From: an uncultured Chroococcidiopsis sp.
GTDB lineage: Bacteria; Cyanobacteriota; Cyanobacteriia; Cyanobacteriales; Chroococcidiopsidaceae
NCBI GenBank assembly: GCA_964248365.1
Contig: CAXTYC010000040.1
Coordinates: 1 to 46,332, forward strand
DNA length: 46,332 nucleotides
Direction of reading: 5' to 3'
The notes beneath the pieces were generated by a model that saw only the letters and a program-made list of their open reading frames with translations, had not been told where the DNA came from and made no database searches. This document shows positions 6,181-46,236 of the stretch, in pieces. The position numbers and the translations under genes were made by a program. The first letter of the stretch is position 1, and the number at the start of each line of letters is the position of its first letter.

Positions 6181-7184
6181 GCACAACAGATAACTCACAA
6201 AAGCCGAGGGTTTTCTTATCGCCAATGCGTGTACCGTTAAACTAGATACGACTCGCCGCATAATCCGTACGACCTGGAATATGGCGGAAAAAAATGGGAA
6301 ACCGATGTAACTAGGACGGCTCTTACTGGACTTGCCCCCGTCACAATACACAGCCCCCTTTTATACTTTAAGGGCAAGACAAAAAGCCTGTCCATTTTTT
6401 CAGCCCCAGCTCCCACACACAAAAGAGCCATTTTTTTCAGACGAGGTACTTAATTGAATTTAGGAGGCATCTGTTAAAGATCCTTCACTAAACTTCATAA
6501 TAACTGTTAGTTGGTCTTGCATCTCAATCCTACTGCCCTTAGCTATACCTTTGGCATGAAAAGATTTTGCGTCTGTTGAGGTAAAAAACTCTAGATAAAG
6601 ACCTTTTTTACCAGGAAAAGACGACATAAAAAATAAAGATAGCCGCGCTCGTTTAGGGTTATTTGTTGGTATTATGGGGGATCTGTGTTGAAGGCGCGGG
6701 AGGTAGTTCCTGAAAAATATTGTCAGCCCTCTTCTCGTTTTCTGTTGTGCGACGTTAAGTTGTTTGTTGGATTTAAGGGTGCCTCCTGCGAAGAGAAAAA
6801 AAGGGAAGGCTCTTTTGAGTGATTTGTTGTGCCGCGTAGGTTATCTATATAGTTTAAGCGCAACCTTTAATTCCTGCGCCTCACCTCGCGGCTGACAATA
6901 TTTTTTTGTCGCCATGTTCCAAGTCTTTATTTTTTACGCGCCTCCATCGGATTCCCAGGAGCCATCCGACATAAAAAAATAAGACAGCCTTCAACGGGAG
7001 GTTATTTGTCGGGGAGTCTTCTGCCAAAAATTGAGCCTGGCTTCATCAGTAATCTAGCTCGGCACAACAGACAATCTTTTGGGTTTAAAGCCAGCCTCAA
7101 TTTTTTAGGGCAACATTCCAAGGAGCCCTTGAGATCTTAATACAAGGCTGTCTTATTTTTTTAACGTATGTCGTGTTCCCAGGA
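6181..7184. repeat. array A of nested variable-stem hairpin modules
   Basis: IR pairs 6627-6639/6924-6936 (13 bp), 6713-6728/6890-6905 (16 bp), 6972-6991/7144-7163 (20 bp), 7026-7043/7088-7105 (17/18); recurrent GTTATYTGTTG-like motif; homologous to 43.75-44.36 kb. Confidence 0.85.
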
Positions 7185-7802
7185 TATGCCCTTTTGAGCG
7201 CAAATCCGCTTTTCATCAAAAATTGCTTTCTAAAATCCTTCTTTTTGAGCTATAGCAATTTTGAGATGAAAATACAAGATACTATGCAAGCTGACTTAAA
7301 AGACTATCTCCCGAATCTCATCACGTCGGTGGTGCTATTTATGCTCGCGTTGATGAGCGTTGCTCATCATTCCAGCTTTTAGTTTGCGCCTTCCATTGCC
7401 AAGCATAATCAGCTTTTAACCCAAGAAATCGGTATGAGTGCGTTTCTTTTGTTTACCATTTTTAGCCCGCTCTAAATTTACAGATCCTAGTAAAATGCGA
7501 TCGCTTCCCCGAAATAGATAAGCCTGAAACCCAGTGTACCAAAATGTTGACTTACCTTTTTTCACTTGCCTTGGGCGATCGCCATTGCTTTTGTTCAAAT
7601 TCTCCGCTTACCCCTGCACCCTTTTGTTCCGCTTTGCTTTGATTTGACATCTTTTATATAGCAATCCTATTTGAGTCATGAAATACGAGAGCAAAGTCGT
7701 CATTTGTCAATAGTCATTTGTCATTGGTGTTAAAAACTCGTACACTCGTACTATTGACGCGGGAACAGCCAAAATAATTGTTCATTGTTCATTGTTCATT
7801 GT

Positions 7803-27017: not shown

Positions 27018-29573
27018 CTAGCCTCTAGCCTCTAGCCCCTCTAAATAAGTGATAGATGTGTTCACTCCCTGTTCTTGTTCAACGAACTCTTGAACGCGGG
27101 TGCGGTATGAGCGCAACGTGTCATCTACCCACTCTCGATCATTACTGTTTGCGAACAAATGTACCACTGGTTCCCCAGCATCTGGCAAGATCAATATCCA
27201 ACTATCGTCATGATGGTTGTTAATCTTGACTCCATCAATTAGCTCAAGATTCTGGGCTGGGTGAGTTTCGACTAGATAGCGCATCAGCGCTCCTTTCACT
27301 GTCCAAGGACAGCGCACGGTGTAAGATTTGTGATATACGCGGGGTAGTTCGGTGCGAATCGTAGCAAGCGATCGCTCTTGAATCGTCAACATCTCAATCA
27401 GCTTGGCAATCGAGAACATCGCATCAAACCCTGGATGCAGTTGGGGAAAAATAAAGCCAGTTTCTCCACTTCCTCCCATAACTACATTCGGCGATTTTCT
27501 ACATTCCTCCATCAACGCTGTTGGATTTGCCTTAGTACGAATCACTTTGGCATCATGGCGACGGGCAATTTGTTCTACAGCACTAGAGGCGTGTATTGGC
27601 ACGACTACTGTACCTCTGGGGTGAGCCGTCAATATCATATTCACCATCAATCCTGTCAACATTTCACCCCGAATTGGAATACCAGCTTCATCAACCAAAG
27701 TCAGTTGTTCGCCATTGGCTGACACCTGGACACCAAAGCTTGCCTTCAGTGCTTCTACTACATGACCTAGTTGCATTATTAATGCTTCTTTCTCCGCTGC
27801 TGAAACAGCAGTCTGTTTGAGGCTAGCATTCAGCACGACGGCATCACAGCCAAATTTAGCTAACAATTGCGGTAGAACTGCACCCGACACCGCATAGGTA
27901 TAGTCTATTACAACCTTCGAGTTACTATGGCGGATCGCCTCCACATTCAGATTCTTCTCAAAAGCTGTGCAGTAAGTTGCAACCATTTCGGTGGGATAGA
28001 CTACATTCCCAATTTCATGTATTTGCACTCGCCGCAGGTCTTCTTTAAAATAAACTCCTTCGATTTTCTTTTCCTGCGCTTTTGAGATATTAATTCCCTG
28101 TTTGTCAATAAACTCAATCAAAATGTAATCCGGTCGGTCTGGATGCAGCCGCACATGAATTCCCCCAGCCACTCCCATCGTAGAGACTACTGTCCGCGCC
28201 ATTGGCAGCGATGTTGCATCTAGGTTTTGGATATTGATTCCTACCGACATCAAACCAGCAATGAGCGATCGCGTCACCATACGTGAGATACTACGCTGAT
28301 CGCGGGAAACTATCACCTGGCTCCCTGGCTTTAAAGCTGAACCGTAAGCAGCTCCCAACTTGACAGCAAATTCTGGCGTAATGTCAATATTTGCTAATCC
28401 TGTAACTCCCCGTTGACCAAATAAATTACGCTGAGCGGTATGACCCCAAATTAAATTAATATTCAAAGTCGCGCCAGATTCAATTTGTTTACTGGGCCAG
28501 ACGCGCACACTCGGACTAATTTGTGCTTCTTCTCCCACCGTCGAGAGCGAACCGACTACAGCGCCTTCCAATACTTGAGCGCGGCGGTCTACCCTAGTGC
28601 CACGAGAAATTACACAAGCTCTTAGATGCACTTCCTCGCCTATAATTGCCCCATTCCAAATAATCGGACGCTTCAGGGTAGCATCAGCCCCAATTGTCAC
28701 ATTGTCTCCAATTACAGTACCAGGAGCAATTTGCACCCTAGCACCGATGCGGCAGTTACTACCAATTAGGCATGGTGCTTCAACTTTGGCACTCGGCTCG
28801 ATGAAAGTGTTTTGACCTACCCAAATACCTGGGGATTGCTCTTCATAAGCATAATCAAGTTTGACTTTCTGGTATAATCCATCGTACTGGCTTTCTCTAT
28901 AAGCATCTAAGTGACCGACATCGCACCAGTAGCCCCCAGCTATGTAACCATACATTGGCTCGTCTTTTTCCAGCAGCAAGGGGAACAAATCTTTCGAGAA
29001 GTCAGTTTCTTGATTCTCTGGTAGGTATTCCAGCACTTCCGGTTCTAGAATGTAGGTTCCAGTGTTAACTGTGTCCGAGAAAATCTCGCTGGAACTCGGT
29101 TTTTCTAAAAATCGTCGAATGCGTTGTTCTTCATCTGTGATCACCACGCCAAATTCTATTGGGTTGGGAACACGAGTTAAAACTAGAGTCGCTTTTGATT
29201 TTTTTTGCCTATGAAATTCAATTGCTGCACTCAAATCAAAATCTGTGATACTATCGCCGCTAATTACTAAAAACGTTTGGTCGAGCAGTTCGGCAATATT
29301 TTTCACGCAACCAGCAGTACCTAAAGGCTGGTCTTCCTCGACAGCATAAGTCATCTGGATGCCAAAATCGCTGCCATCAGAGAAGTAATCGCGCATCACA
29401 TCAGGCAAGTAGTGCAGGGTAGCAATTACTTCTGTGATTTGATGCCGTTTGAGCAGATTTATGATGTGTTCCGCAATTGGTCGGTTTAATATCGGCACCA
29501 TCGGTTTGGGAAGATCACAAGTTAGCGGTCTTAACCGCGTTCCAGACCCTCCAGCCATCAGCACTGCGCGCAT
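27018..29573 (-). CDS. mannose-1-phosphate guanylyltransferase / phosphomannomutase-like fusion
   Basis: [35 protein letters not shown], hexapeptide region and C-terminal phosphohexomutase-like domains. Confidence 0.93.
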
Positions 29574-41524: not shown

Positions 41525-43351
41525 ATGAAACTGACTGCCCCAAGTGGTAGGACTAAAACTACACGTACTATAGGACAACGTAACCAATCTTTAGCATTAA
41601 TGCTGGGGATTACTTTATTCATATTTGGTGGCATTGGCAGTCGTCTAGCCTACCTACAACTGCTCGAAGGAACCCACAATCGACAGCAGGCAGAAAACAA
41701 CCGCATTCGATTGATTCCCAAACAACCAGAAAGAGGCAACATTTTTGATCGCAAAGGCAGAATTTTAGCTAGCAGTCGGCTTTCCCACTCAGTATACGTG
41801 TGGCCCATAGCTCCCAAAAAACCCCAATGGGCGGATACCATAAAGCGCCTAGCCCAAATTTTAAATATGCCAGAGTCGGAGATCCAAAAGCGGATGGACA
41901 AAGCAGGCTACAATTCCCCCACCTTGATCCGCATAGCCAGAGATTTAAATCCTGCCCAAATAACAGCATTAGCAGAATCCAAAAACGAGCTACCAGACGT
42001 TGAGGTGTTTATAGAAGCGATGCGGGGGTATCCCAATGGGCAAGTAGCTGCTCATATACTCGGTTACACCGGAGAAATGAATGATGAACAATTAGCCAAA
42101 AAGCGTCGAGAAGGTTATCGCCTGGGAGATGTAATCGGACAAATGGGAGTCGAGGCAGCATATGAGAAACAGCTTAGAGGAGAATGGGGGGGACAGCAAG
42201 TAGAGATAGATGGTAAAGGGCGAATTTTGCGTTATCTAGGCGATAAAAAGGCAAAATCAGGTCAGAGTATTCATTTAACCATAGACTTAGAGTTACAAAA
42301 AGCAGCAGAAAAAACTTTAGGCGATCGCCAAGGAGCGATCGTAGCACTCGATCCTCGTAACGGTGCGGTTTTAGCAATGGTTAGTCGCCCAACTTTTGAC
42401 CCCAACATTTTCTCTAAGCGCTTCACTCCATCTGTGTGGCGTAGCCTGCAAAAGAAAGATCATCCCTTTGTCAATCGCACTTTACAGGGATTTCCCCCAG
42501 CCAGTACGTTTAAAGTTATTACAACTACGGCTGGACTGGAATCAGGTAAATTTTCTCCCAACACAGTCCTACAAACATACGGCTGTATGAACATCGGCGG
42601 AACTAGTTTTTGCGATTGGAACCACGCCGGATTTGGACCATTGGGATTTGTGGGCGCACTGGCACACAGTAGCGACACGTTCTTCTATCAAATTGGCAGG
42701 GGAGTCGGTGGACCTACATTAATCGATTGGACGCGAAAATATGGTTTTGGGCGAAAAACAGGTATTGAATTAGCATCGGAAGAAGCAAAGGGATTGGTTG
42801 CTGATGCTAAATGGAAGCAGGAAAATCTTAAGCTTCCCTGGAGTGTGGGAGATACAGTGAATATGTCAATTGGGCAAGGATTTTTGCAAGTGACACCCCT
42901 GCAACTTGCCGTGATGTTTTCTGTACCTGCTAACGGCGGCTACCGAATTAAACCCCACTTGTTAAAAGACGATGAGGATTCAAAAAACTGGCGACAGTCT
43001 TTGAATTTAAAACCTACAACAGTACAAATACTGCGTCAAGGACTGCGGGCGGTGGTAGATGGTGGTACGGGTAAGGCGCTAAATTCGCCGACAATTCCGC
43101 CAGCAGCTGGTAAAAGTGGTACAGCGGAAACTTATAAACGTAAATCTCACACTTGGTTTGGTGGCATCGCGCCTATTAACAAGCCAGAAATTGTAGTAGT
43201 TGCCTTTGCTGAACACTCCGGCGGCGGCGGTGGTAAAATATGCGCCCCAATGGTGTTAAAAGTGATGGAGGCGTATTTTCACAGCACTCCGAAGTCAGCA
43301 GACAAAAAGGACTCACAAGTCACAAGTCACAAGTTGCGAGTCAGGAGATAG
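41525..43351 (+). CDS. mrdA: penicillin-binding protein 2
   Basis: RG.IFDR.G, G..GVE, STFK (SxxK), SSDTFFY, IGQG, KSGT. Confidence 0.95.
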   Translation: MKLTAPSGRTKTTRTIGQRNQSLALMLGITLFIFGGIGSRLAYLQLLEGTHNRQQAENNRIRLIPKQPERGNIFDRKGRILASSRLSHSVYVWPIAPKKPQWADTIKRLAQILNMPESEIQKRMDKAGYNSPTLIRIARDLNPAQITALAESKNELPDVEVFIEAMRGYPNGQVAAHILGYTGEMNDEQLAKKRREGYRLGDVIGQMGVEAAYEKQLRGEWGGQQVEIDGKGRILRYLGDKKAKSGQSIHLTIDLELQKAAEKTLGDRQGAIVALDPRNGAVLAMVSRPTFDPNIFSKRFTPSVWRSLQKKDHPFVNRTLQGFPPASTFKVITTTAGLESGKFSPNTVLQTYGCMNIGGTSFCDWNHAGFGPLGFVGALAHSSDTFFYQIGRGVGGPTLIDWTRKYGFGRKTGIELASEEAKGLVADAKWKQENLKLPWSVGDTVNMSIGQGFLQVTPLQLAVMFSVPANGGYRIKPHLLKDDEDSKNWRQSLNLKPTTVQILRQGLRAVVDGGTGKALNSPTIPPAAGKSGTAETYKRKSHTWFGGIAPINKPEIVVVAFAEHSGGGGGKICAPMVLKVMEAYFHSTPKSADKKDSQVTSHKLRVRR

Positions 43352-43484
43352 GAACCTAGGAACGGGTTTATTTAGACGAGCCAAAAACAGCTAATATGAC
43401 TAAACCCGTAAACACCTGTAAACAAACTGCGCCTCTTAAAGCACGGATTAGGTATGATTAAGACCTTGACATTAGCGACAAAAT

Positions 43485-43745
43485 ATGAAGCGTCTTGAAT
43501 CTGCAACTCCAGCTCAAGCTCGACAAACAAGAGAGGAATTTGCCAACCCAGACGCTTACCTAGATTATGAATTATATCTGGCAGTTAAAAAGTTACCGCC
43601 CTTGTATACACGTTTGGTAGGGGTAACTTTAAGTTTAGCAGTATTTGGCGCGATCGCTTGGGCAGCTTTCTACAAAGTTGATGAGGTAGCTGTTGCTCCT
43701 GGTAAAATAATTCCCTCGGATCGAGTGCAGCCAGTACGAGCGTGC
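43485..43745 (+). pseudogene. HlyD-family secretion adaptor, N-terminal fragment truncated at array B
   Basis: TM helix then IAWA..KVDEVAVAPGKIIPS.RVQPVRA typical of HlyD N-termini; the remainder of the ORF to 43910 is read-through of repeat DNA. Confidence 0.8.
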
Positions 43746-44362
43746 GTCACCAACCACTCAAAAAGCCTGACTTATTTTTCAAAGGTAACCTCTTGTGCCG
43801 CTGTGTTTGGGTTATCTGTTGGTATTACGGGGTGGGAGGCGAAGGAACCTGAAATAAATAGTCAGCCCTATTTCGGTTATTTGTGTTGCCCCAAAGGAAG
43901 CTTGAAATAAAAATCCAGCTAGGTATTGGGGCGGAGTGTCAGCGGAGTCAGCAACCCCCGCTGAGCCTCCTTTATATTGCACTGGTACGAAGGATCTTTA
44001 AAGAGGGCTGGATTTTTATTTTTGCGCTAAATGTAAAACAGGTGATCTATGGGGTTTGAGGGCTGACTATTTATTTTTGCGCGTTCCTTCCAGATCTGTG
44101 TTTATGGCTCGTGAGGTTAGCGCAAAAATTACCCTTGGCTTATTTAAGGGATCTGTTGGTATTGATGAGTAGTTAGTGTTGTTTGAAGCCGAGGGTTTTT
44201 TTGTCGCTATATTCCAAGTCTTTACTTTTTAGAGGTTACAGCGGATACCCAGGGTTTGACGACATAAAAATAAGGCAAGCCTTGTATTAGGGTTATTTGT
44301 TGGCATTATGAGGGATCGATTTTGAAGGCTTGCCTTATTTTTACTGGTTACAGCGGATACCC
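43745..44362. repeat. array B of nested variable-stem hairpin modules
   Basis: IR pairs 43852-43869/44059-44076 (18 bp), 43905-43919/44007-44021 (15 bp), 44124-44141/44186-44202 (imperfect), 44265-44283/44325-44343 (19 bp); 17-bp direct repeat 44234-44250/44346-44362. Confidence 0.88.
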
Positions 44363-45184
44363 TGAATTTTCAGCCTCTTTTGTTTCAATCCGTAACAAAT
44401 TTCCTGTATTTGTTGTCACGATATAAGTCTTATTCCAAACTGCCACTCCAGATCCAATGCCCAAGCCACGAGCGCCCAGATCGATAATAGTGGAAACAGT
44501 ACCGTCTAGATTTACTTGCAACAGATTTCCAGTATTACTGGTAACAATCAACAAGTTATCTACTTCTACTACGTCAAAGGGAATACCTTTGCCTGCACTA
44601 ACTAAATTTACAATCGGTGTTACCTCACCATCCCAGCCCACTCGCAGCAAGTCACCGCTTGAGCAACCGACAATAAAGCCATTGTTGCTTGTAGTCACGG
44701 CAAAAGGTATGCCAAAACCAGCCATGTCTGCCAAAGTGGAGATGGAACCGTTACGCTCTAACCGAATCAGATGCCCTTGAGAACTGGCAACATCACTAGC
44801 AGTACCGACAACGATGAAATCATCACTAGCTGCCACGCCAAAAGGTCCGCCAAAGCTACCGCACACTTGCGACAACTGGGCAATGGTGAAGAAAAAACCA
44901 CTTTTAGTTATTCGCAACAAGCGATCGCCTGCCTCCAAAGCTGAAATAGTAACCAAAAAGCTGCCATTATTCTCGGCAATGCCGAACGGAACGCCGTAGC
45001 CAGACACATCTGCTAACGTCACCACCTCAAGGTTTTGCTTCACCCGCAGTAAACCACGATCTAAGGTTGGCACAATAATGTCACCATCGCTGAGTGCAAC
45101 CCCCTGGAAAGGAATAATTTGCAGACCTTGGGTGACGAGTGATACCAACGTTTTCCGACCAACCTCTTGTGAATTTATATCCAT
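44348..45184 (-). CDS. hypothetical beta-propeller-like repeat protein (Vgb/SMP-30-like)
   Basis: About six ~43-aa repeats G.PFG(V/I)A....(F/L)IV.....G.LLR(V/I)..DG.V.T(L/I)A. Confidence 0.75.
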   Translation of the reverse strand: MDINSQEVGRKTLVSLVTQGLQIIPFQGVALSDGDIIVPTLDRGLLRVKQNLEVVTLADVSGYGVPFGIAENNGSFLVTISALEAGDRLLRITKSGFFFTIAQLSQVCGSFGGPFGVAASDDFIVVGTASDVASSQGHLIRLERNGSISTLADMAGFGIPFAVTTSNNGFIVGCSSGDLLRVGWDGEVTPIVNLVSAGKGIPFDVVEVDNLLIVTSNTGNLLQVNLDGTVSTIIDLGARGLGIGSGVAVWNKTYIVTTNTGNLLRIETKEAENSGYPL

Positions 45185-45481
45185 TAAATAAATTTAGAGC
45201 AGCTAATAAGACTCGCTGACAAGTCACCACACGAGCGCTGTGAAAGCGCTCCCCATATTGTAGGACTAGTTAAGCATAAGCCACCAGAGTCTGATGAACA
45301 GTTTTACATTTAGCGCAAAAAATAAAAATTAAGCCCTATATTAGGGTTTATTGGTCAGAGCAAGCCGGAGTCGAAGGGAGAATCGCTCCTCCCCACTCTC
45401 CTTCAAAACCGTGCATGATACTTTCGCATCAGACGGCTCCTCTAGATTTGGTGTACTGTCAAACACACCTCATTCCCCAAA

Positions 45482-46236
45482 TTACGGGTTAAGGCTCGGC
45501 ACTATTTCAGCCGGATTATTGCCAGAATGCCTGTCAATTGCAGTCTTTTGGTCGTGGCAGTGTCGATGTAATGCCTGGAGATTGTTCCAAGTATCCTTAC
45601 CTGCTTTAGCTTTTGGTATGATGTGGTCAATCTCAATCAAGTCATCACTTTTGAAAAACAATTCACAGTGGGAACATCTTCCTTTTTGTGGCTGTTTCTG
45701 TTATCGTTGGAATCCCAAGGGGGCGTTTTTCCTCCGTTCCAGGTTTAGGTATCCAAACCCGTCTGGTTGGTTTTACCCTTTGAGATAGTCTCATTTTGTT
45801 AACTACTTTAAGTCTTTGGGCTGGTGTCAAGGATTTTACTCCATCAGTCCCCGCGGTTTTCTTGCCCTGGTTATCTTGTGAAACTCGACGGACAGCTAGA
45901 CATTTTGCTGCCCAAGACCTCATCAGTGTTTTCTGGAGCCTGTGAACTGCTTTGACATCCAACGAATCTGGCGACAAAAAATACGGGCGACCCTCCTCAT
46001 CCGAATACGTCACTACGCCCAAAAGATCTTTAAAACAGGGTCGCCCGTATTTTTCTAGCTTTGCCTCCCCACGACTTGAGGCGGATGTTTCTTCGTTTTT
46101 GCACCTTGTATACACGTTTTTCCAGTTTTTTCCAGGGTATATCCTTCCAATCGAGTTCGAATTCTACTCCGGCGTAAACTGGTATGTCGTTTTCCCATAC
46201 CATCCTGAAACTATGTTCGGCTTTAGTCTTATTCAT
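45482..46236 (-). pseudogene. ltrA: intron-encoded reverse transcriptase/maturase with frameshifts, 108-bp insertion and deleted RT core
   Basis: W..IPWKKLEKRVYK.QKR, AVRRVSQDNQGKKTAG.DG, RRVWIPKPG..EKRPLGIPTI, then in another frame QKGRCSHC..EIDHIIP....GKD...NLQALHRHCHD.KT (HNH); no YADD present. Confidence 0.9.
45961..46068. mobile_element. solo variable-stem hairpin module inserted in the RT gene
   Basis: 18-bp perfect IR 45977-45994/46037-46054 (AAAAATACGGGCGACCCT); 36 extra codons between ASSRG and DVKAV. Confidence 0.85.

Follow-up and report, generated by a model that had tools for sequence, protein, structure and literature searches.

The DNA analysed here, called the window, comprises 46,332 nucleotides and is the entire contig C40 of a 5.58 Mb cyanobacterial assembly of 102 contigs (G000). 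Its final 1 kb holds the decayed remains of a minus-strand group II intron. The intron ORF (45482..46236, minus strand) starts at 46236 and retains an HNH domain (45688-45482, minus strand; Pfam E 4.3e-15) as well as a remnant of RVT_N, located in residues 53-108 of the ORF 46115-45663 (minus strand; Pfam profile positions 28-83 of 83, E 1.6e-20). Domains V-VI of the intron lie at 45364..45441 on the same strand (Rfam RF00029, 47.3 bits, E 1.7e-7) and, together with RVT_N and HNH, mark the gene as that of a group II intron-encoded reverse transcriptase (RT). The RT and X domains, about 1.15 kb, are deleted (positions 299-1451 of the intact copy L002 from the same-genus genome G005 are missing from the window). 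In addition, a frameshift near 46095 parts the native RT segment upstream of the insert described below (46069..46115, minus strand, ending in ..ASSRG) from the ORF start at 46236, which is in a different frame from ORF 46115-45663; the N-terminal HSPs (46152/46173 to 46093) also fall in this other frame. With these deletions and the frameshift, the intron RT gene is a pseudogene.

The 3' end of the intron remnant adjoins half a hairpin element (window 45300-45360) made of a TTTACATTTAGCGCAA unit, an A-run and a single arm with no partner arm; a repeat was therefore disrupted here, either by the intron or in the course of its decay. The ORF 44348-45184 (minus strand, 278 codons) gives weak beta-propeller-like Pfam hints (DUF6923, E 0.002), finds no DNA match in five same-genus genomes, and its final codons enter the 3' unit of a second hairpin element, of type III. 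ORF 43485-43910 (plus strand, 141 codons) resembles the N-terminal portion of a membrane-fusion / HlyD-like protein, with no Pfam match; it runs into a repeat cluster and may be truncated, and sequence similar to it follows a chance motif match at G000:C51:25514.

The RT remnant is interrupted by a hairpin element of 108 nt, here named type I (45961..46068, plus strand), which is antisense to the RT coding strand and is composed of a left unit (45961-45976; AACGAATC followed by TGGCGACA), an arm with an A-run (45977-45994), a loop of 42 nt (45995-46036), an arm with a T-run (46037-46054) and a right unit (46055-46068; CTAGCTTTGCCTCC). The two arms, 42 nt apart, form an 18-nt inverted repeat with 100% complementarity, and the predicted DNA fold of the insert reaches -18.9 kcal/mol vs -9.5 +/- 2.5 for shuffled sequences (z -3.7; 1 of 200 shuffles equal). 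In ORF 46115-45663 (minus strand) the protein reads ...ASSRG-EAKLEK...LSPDSL-DVKAVHRL..., with 36 additional, stop-free codons. The initial annotation, which had described the frame ASSRG/DVKAV as broken by exactly 108 nt carrying 36 stop-free codons and an 18-nt perfect inverted repeat, is confirmed on all these points.

Comparison with RT homologs allowed the empty state of the gene to be defined. When eight homologous RT ORFs from relatives were aligned to the window, seven started at D53 (45959) and one at 45953. All seven homologs in which the N-terminus is kept read AS.RG(D/N)VK without interruption, encoded as CGT GGN GAT/AAC GTC AAR, and of the 150 RT matches listed, which came from 27 of 41 related genomes, only the self-match covered residues 17-37 of the ORF. 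Excision of exactly 45961-46068 restores CGT GGG GAT GTC. The alignment to intact RT genes, proposed earlier as a means of fixing the breakpoints, sets them at 45961-46068 with an ambiguity of at most 3 nt (TCC, plus strand), and a native 36-aa segment, which would have spoken against an insertion, occurs in none of the homologs examined. Because the module is a discrete insertion in a gene without it in each homolog examined, the view that it is, or was, mobile is supported.

The insert belongs to a family of dispersed repeats. Type I copies share ..GGAAT(N)TGGCGACA and an A-run on the left and a T-run and C(A/T)AGC(2-5 nt)GCCTCC on the right, around a perfect stem particular to each copy and a loop of about 42 nt; across the hairpin elements the end units recorded are TGGCGACA(A)n, C(A/T)AGC..GCCTCC, GGTTACATCGGATTCCC and CCCAGGGTTTTCCGTC, and element sizes range over 104-112 nt. 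The left 14-mer motif is present in G000 in 8 exact copies vs 0.06 expected (24 with at most one mismatch), and 14 complete type I copies, as defined by a regular expression, were counted in this genome. An exact two-part pattern yielded 6 copies in G000, 2 in G005 and none in the 39 other relatives searched, and was also detected in metagenome-assembled genomes (MAGs) of Tolypothrix carrinoi and Spirirestis rafaelensis; a scan of genome contigs with the same pattern returned 22 stretches, 5 of them cyanobacterial, the remainder looking like chance. The nearest relative of the RT insert is G000:C1:371637-371786, which has both end units in common with it (left AACGAAT.TGGCGACA, right identical AGCTTTGCCTCC) between unrelated flanks. 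No copy in G000 shares the stem of the RT copy, and the RT insertion is therefore old. Neither Rfam, searched with the hairpin modules and with the host sequence of the C62 copy described below, nor a full-text literature search with the motif strings of the family gave a match.

A wider superfamily of 84 perfect-arm hairpins was gathered in G000 blind to their flanks, so that the association found between left and right units is not circular: a 3' ...CCTC(C) lies within 20 nt in 10 of the 12 hairpins with the 5' flank GGCGAC(A), and in 11 of 121 other flank views. The view that the module has a fixed, asymmetric layout is supported. Long flank repeats (score >=13) accompany 3 of the 84 hairpins, vs 3 of 990 shuffled pairs.

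Two further structural observations concern the family. Pairing is possible between GGC in the left unit (TGGCGACA) and GC(C/T) in the right unit (CAAGCY; alignment columns 10-12 with 109-111), which would extend the hairpin past an internal loop; these positions hardly vary and give no covariation signal. Dense clusters of nested hairpins occupy window 43840-44250 and 6600-7250, where hairpin loops of 145-161 nt match in length the usual loop of about 44 nt with a single element of about 108 nt inserted into it; the composite order in both clusters is a type I remnant, the arm AAGTCTTTA(Y)TTTTTA, a type III 3' unit and a type III element.

The variation of the stem was analysed in an alignment of 14 type I copies (11 from G000 and one each from G005, Tolypothrix and Spirirestis; 13 collected by the end-unit pattern and 1 by eye). 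The end units show little or no variation, and 94.7% of stem cells are paired over the 14 copies and 95.5% in the main stem of 16 pairs. Double-change cells number 60 vs 19.0 +/- 3.3 after shuffling, a value reached in 0 of 500 shuffles. In the main stem, 11 pairs covary, none shows one-sided variation and a single cell holds a G-U pair. Since this Watson-Crick covariation is strict and lacks wobble intermediates, it favours DNA-level pairing (a hairpin, a cruciform or arm-to-arm correction) over an RNA structure.

In pairs of filled and empty sites, sister copies prove to lie between target duplications of 3-5 bp; this evidence consists of three pairs, drawn mainly from one comparison genome. 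The copy at C22:48668-48773 is absent from G005:C325, where the empty site has CTCT once, and the filled site reads CTCT, the 106-nt element (GGAATT...GCCTCC) and CTCT again. The C18 copy is absent from G005:C412, G001, G003 and G004 and has duplicated GGTG (4-5 bp). At C62:11794-11897, a sister-type copy with the end units TTACAATGGCGCAA / AAAGCTAACCGTCG measures 104 nt and has duplicated CCC; it is absent from G005:C351 (flanks 94% and 86% identical) and from G002:C41. Three copies in the Tolypothrix carrinoi / Spirirestis rafaelensis MAGs have GGTGA on either side, and the RT site, with at most 3 bp, stands at the low end of the 3-5-bp range. The sequence hosting the C62 copy (G000:C62:11400-12290, L111) is itself repeated: it is multi-copy in G005, G002 and G003 (67-94% identity) and contains no ORF above 150 codons. 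No empty site was found among relatives for the C1 and C43 copies, nor a usable one for C37 and C29, and the flanks of the G005 copies have no ortholog in G000. For type III, the relatives were too diverged for junction placement at C3 and C4, synteny was broken at C27, and no syntenic match was obtained for C39 and C12 in a draw without G005; in G001-G005, conservation of window 43000-45300 stops after the first 306 nt, with no empty site.

The junction of the RT insert had been interpreted in the initial annotation as a long target duplication, formed by an imperfect direct repeat, GCTTTGACATCC (45949-45960) and GCTTTGCCTCC (46058-46068), set around 16 nt, the hairpin and 3 nt. Repeat and layout are present as described. 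The left copy corresponds to the native RT codons D-V-K-A (45949..45960, minus strand), the last 3 nt of which, TCC, constitute the sole junction ambiguity: in empty homologs including L008 and L012, GATGTCAAAGC directly adjoins the ..RG codons, and tblastn HSPs of RT homologs begin at 45959. As to the right copy, the same 12-mer terminates the unrelated C1 copy, and very similar units are found at the ends of copies in G005 and at other G000 loci. According to these comparisons, GCTTTGCCTCC at 46058-46068 is the conserved 3' end of the repeat family and GCTTTGACATCC at 45949-45960 is native RT sequence; the pair is not a target duplication. The RT junction shows no clean duplication and leaves room for 3 bp (TCC) at most, and the apparent repeat of 11-12 nt is the 3' unit of the element beside RT sequence that resembles it, more likely by coincidence.

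The second module invoked for the same geometry, at 44234-44362, has the layout described to within one base, but it belongs to a different sub-family with different end units. It consists of a type III hairpin element (44251..44362, plus strand) with left unit (CCC)AGGGTTTGACGACA, hairpin 44265-44343 and right unit ..GGTTACAGCGGATACCC, preceded by another type III right unit (44226..44250, plus strand; a T-run and AGAGGTTACAGCGGATACCC) that completes the right arm of the nested repeat cluster lying before it and supplies the left copy of the 17-nt repeat noted earlier. The type III consensus, (T)TCCCAGG-GTTT(T/G)(C/A)CG(T/A)C on the left and AGAGGTTACATCGGATTCCC(AGG) on the right, is represented in G000 by at least 20 related copies, including C15:5030-5110, C39:26055-26134, C12, C14 and C27. 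The direct repeat of the module extends over 32 nt at 84% identity (44226-44257 / 44338-44369) and contains the perfect 17-nt core; this core is recognizable as the type III right unit present twice, and the arrangement of a unit followed by an element is repeated at window 6936-7190. The two unit copies of 44226-44362 share the substitutions G8 and A14. Among 33 copies after a hairpin T-run, G8 occurs in these two only and A14 in 4 (by reading of the list), and these shared private changes imply that a local copying event, duplication or conversion, must have occurred.

Another type III copy, G000:C41:28961-29043 (region 28935-29070), has on both sides a direct repeat of about 24 nt, composed of a type I-like end unit and an A-run, with a few mismatches and a single gap. 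Among the long flank duplications of the genome it is the clearest. Long flank repeats are thus real but exceptional.

Besides the RT gene, two other genes carry copies that are in frame and free of stops, one encoding an IS5-family transposase and one an ABC ATPase. The RT copy adds 108 nt. The transposase frame, otherwise open (G000:C8:62469-63557, 363 codons; DDE_Tnp_1_5, DDE_Tnp_1), has gained 111 nt, the element (62923-63033; L013:624-734) lying between ..EWKVRQ and ..ASKRRTWRKLH; homologous IS copies without it occur in G003, G002 and G011, the nearest empty copies are 72-78% identical and place the junction approximately. In an ABC-transporter ATPase of Tolypothrix carrinoi, 106 + 5 = 111 nt (37 codons) were added just 5' of the ABC_tran domain: in the MAG record L029 (392 nt) the element, with GGTGA/GGTGA, spans positions ~145-255 between ..VSFSYNQ and GHILQNISF.., upstream of Walker A. 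In the Spirirestis rafaelensis MAG, two identical copies at different loci (L030, L048) point to recent activity there. The three intergenic copies C18, C22 and C62 add 110, 113 and 107 nt, respectively; as these lengths are not multiples of 3, the in-frame lengths of the genic copies look like survivorship and not like an intrinsic property of the element.

On this evidence the 108 nt are probably one copy of a MITE-like element that is non-autonomous and about 104-109 nt long; its sister copies carry 3-5-bp duplications, and its own 3' unit furnishes the flanking repeat. Such an element would be mobilised by an enzyme acting in trans, which would recognise the conserved end units together with the shape of the DNA hairpin and cut with a short stagger of 3-5 bp; copies landing in genes would persist only when their length keeps the frame and stops are absent. 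The family may be inactive now in this genome, because no identical copies are left in it. Comparison with one IS, the IS5-family element at C8 that itself hosts a copy, gave no mobilising transposase or partner, its terminal repeats being unrelated. Terminal inverted repeats of the hairpin element are limited to GGA (C22 ends GGAATTTGGCG.. vs the reverse complement of ..GTGCCTCC, by eye).

Two alternatives to this account concern the junctions and the insert itself. Integration with duplication of 12-17 bp of target, both GCTTTG...TCC copies being derived from RT, would accommodate the TSD-like geometry, in which both repeat copies end exactly at the junctions, the perfect 17-nt repeat of the 44234 module with its shared G8 and A14, and the ~24-nt flank repeat at G000:C41:28961. 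At the RT site, such a duplication is contradicted by a right unit that is constant in the family, its 12-mer recurring at the end of the unrelated C1 copy, and by a left copy that is native; moreover, three sister copies carry duplications of 3-5 bp and 81 of the 84 hairpins are without a long flank repeat, which makes the long duplication very improbable. Still harder to credit is that there was no insertion and that the segment is a native, lineage-specific part of this RT or an assembly artefact. The segment is in frame and stop-free, and the contig ends 264 nt further on, within the intron, but no RT homolog has the segment, which displays the full architecture of a dispersed-repeat family. 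A 152-nt metagenome contig that spans the left junction also agrees with 45867-46018 at every position (0 differences); it possibly stems from the source sample and is then not independent. Public sequencing runs contained at most 0.22 of the words per run and gave fragment contigs only, with no joint skipping the insert, and are uninformative on empty alleles or excision.

The other alternatives assign a role to the target sequence. In a homology-guided integration the element, as a circle or hairpin intermediate, would enter a target resembling its joined ends, and the short duplications would represent a core or microhomology; the route might be site-specific recombination of an att-like kind, or else template switching mediated by microhomology. 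Several observations agree with this. The RT target GCTTTGACATCC|CCACGA resembles the right end and the left start of the element on both sides, a local alignment of 17 nt runs across both junctions (GCTTTGACATCC|AACGA vs GCTTTGCCTCC|CCACGA), and in an anchored alignment against the last 14 nt of the element only 249 of 400,000 random genomic sites scored as well, so that the likeness is improbable for a random site and pure coincidence is not a comfortable explanation. Like microhomologies, the junction repeats vary in length (3, 4, 4-5 and 5 bp); at the type III copy G000:C4:199623 the native target (GGTACGGATTCCTC.., in 5 of 5 empty relatives) resembles the type III 3' unit; and long flank repeats exist at a few type III copies. 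Against it, the RT likeness was spotted post hoc and includes the 3 matches of the junction repeat, and given a 3-nt match its chance is about 1/80. At the C22, C18 and Tolypothrix flanks, likeness to the element ends is, by eye, no longer than the 4-5-bp repeat, and C22 and C62 have one short repeat in the empty site and two in the filled site, as expected from a staggered cut. The target homology offered in the initial annotation as an alternative to duplication is thus seen at the RT site, where the target does resemble both element ends, but not at these three. Coincidence is more likely than targeting by homology as the source of the RT likeness, and homology-guided integration as a whole is considered unlikely, though it is the main rival account.

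A related idea, by analogy with attC sites, is that of a mobile DNA read by its structure, in which an enzyme would read a DNA hairpin of any sequence between two short end units of single-stranded type and prefer targets like the joined ends. We regard this proposal as quite doubtful. If true, it would explain why the stem drifts with perfect Watson-Crick pairing and without wobble intermediates, and targets in end units would yield the occasional long flank repeats (44226-44362, G000:C41:28961). It would also represent a mode not described for cyanobacterial MITEs, and one that reaches genes, adding 36-37 residues in frame.

Taken as a MITE-like insertion, the copy in the intron RT, together with those in the transposase and the ABC ATPase, provides a clean and datable example of a small hairpin element within genes where it is tolerated in frame, with an insertion geometry now corrected to a duplication of 3-5 bp. 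To our knowledge, the enzyme that moves small cyanobacterial repeats is still to be identified, and a strictly Watson-Crick, covarying stem between constant ends offers a handle for finding it. For annotation, the results carry the warning that low-complexity inserts of 36-37 residues in cyanobacterial proteins may be repeat insertions.

Among known systems, MITEs such as Nezha of Anabaena/Nostoc, Correia, RUP and ERIC are alike in being non-coding, multi-copy sequences of about 100 nt with a hairpin and short duplications. The element described here is non-coding, measures 104-112 nt, is present in 14 complete copies in G000, where the wider superfamily numbers 84 perfect-arm hairpins, and has target duplications of 3-5 bp in three pairs and at most 3 bp at RT. 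In classical MITEs the terminal inverted repeats are conserved and match an IS, whereas the present element has unlike ends sharing GGA only, an internal, copy-specific inverted repeat, and no partner in the single IS compared. The duplications CTCT, GGTG and CCC, differing in sequence, set it apart from IS200/IS605-derived PATE and REP-RAYT (HUH, single-strand transposition) systems, which insert beside a fixed tetra- or pentanucleotide and do not duplicate the target. Hairpin-linked small dispersed repeats (SDR) of Nostoc punctiforme resemble it in being short, non-coding, dispersed and nested, and mobile by filled/empty comparison. Elhai et al. reportedly described, in 2008, SDR and nested compound elements in Nostoc punctiforme and relatives, with eight published SDR consensus sequences said to be of 21-27 nt. 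By this description the present mobile unit, shown by empty sites to be 104-109 nt plus a 3-5-bp duplication, would be larger than an SDR; its end units measure 14-22 nt. Two later articles mention an insertion of SDR5 within HIP1 and state that no SDR was found outside Nostocaceae (PMC5861425; PMC4390886).

Other parallels are ones of behaviour or of structure. Rickettsia palindromic elements (RPE), likened here by behaviour only, are palindromes of about 100 nt lying in frame in protein genes; they belong to another phylum and are probably unrelated in sequence. The sequence families of RPE are conserved. In-frame insertion of RPE in protein-coding genes is attributed to Ogata et al. 2000 in a review that also treats other repeats residing in genes and mentions MITE copies sometimes fused in frame to ORFs (PMC3184786). 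In integron attC sites, likened by structure, the structure and short flanking cores are conserved and the stem sequence varies, as here. We know of no 3-5-bp duplication left by attC or REPIN insertions. REPINs are described as hairpin doublets mobilised in trans (PMC3116915); their arms are the conserved part, whereas in the present family the arms vary and the ends are constant. The insert in the RT gene is a MITE-like, or small-dispersed-repeat-like, element.
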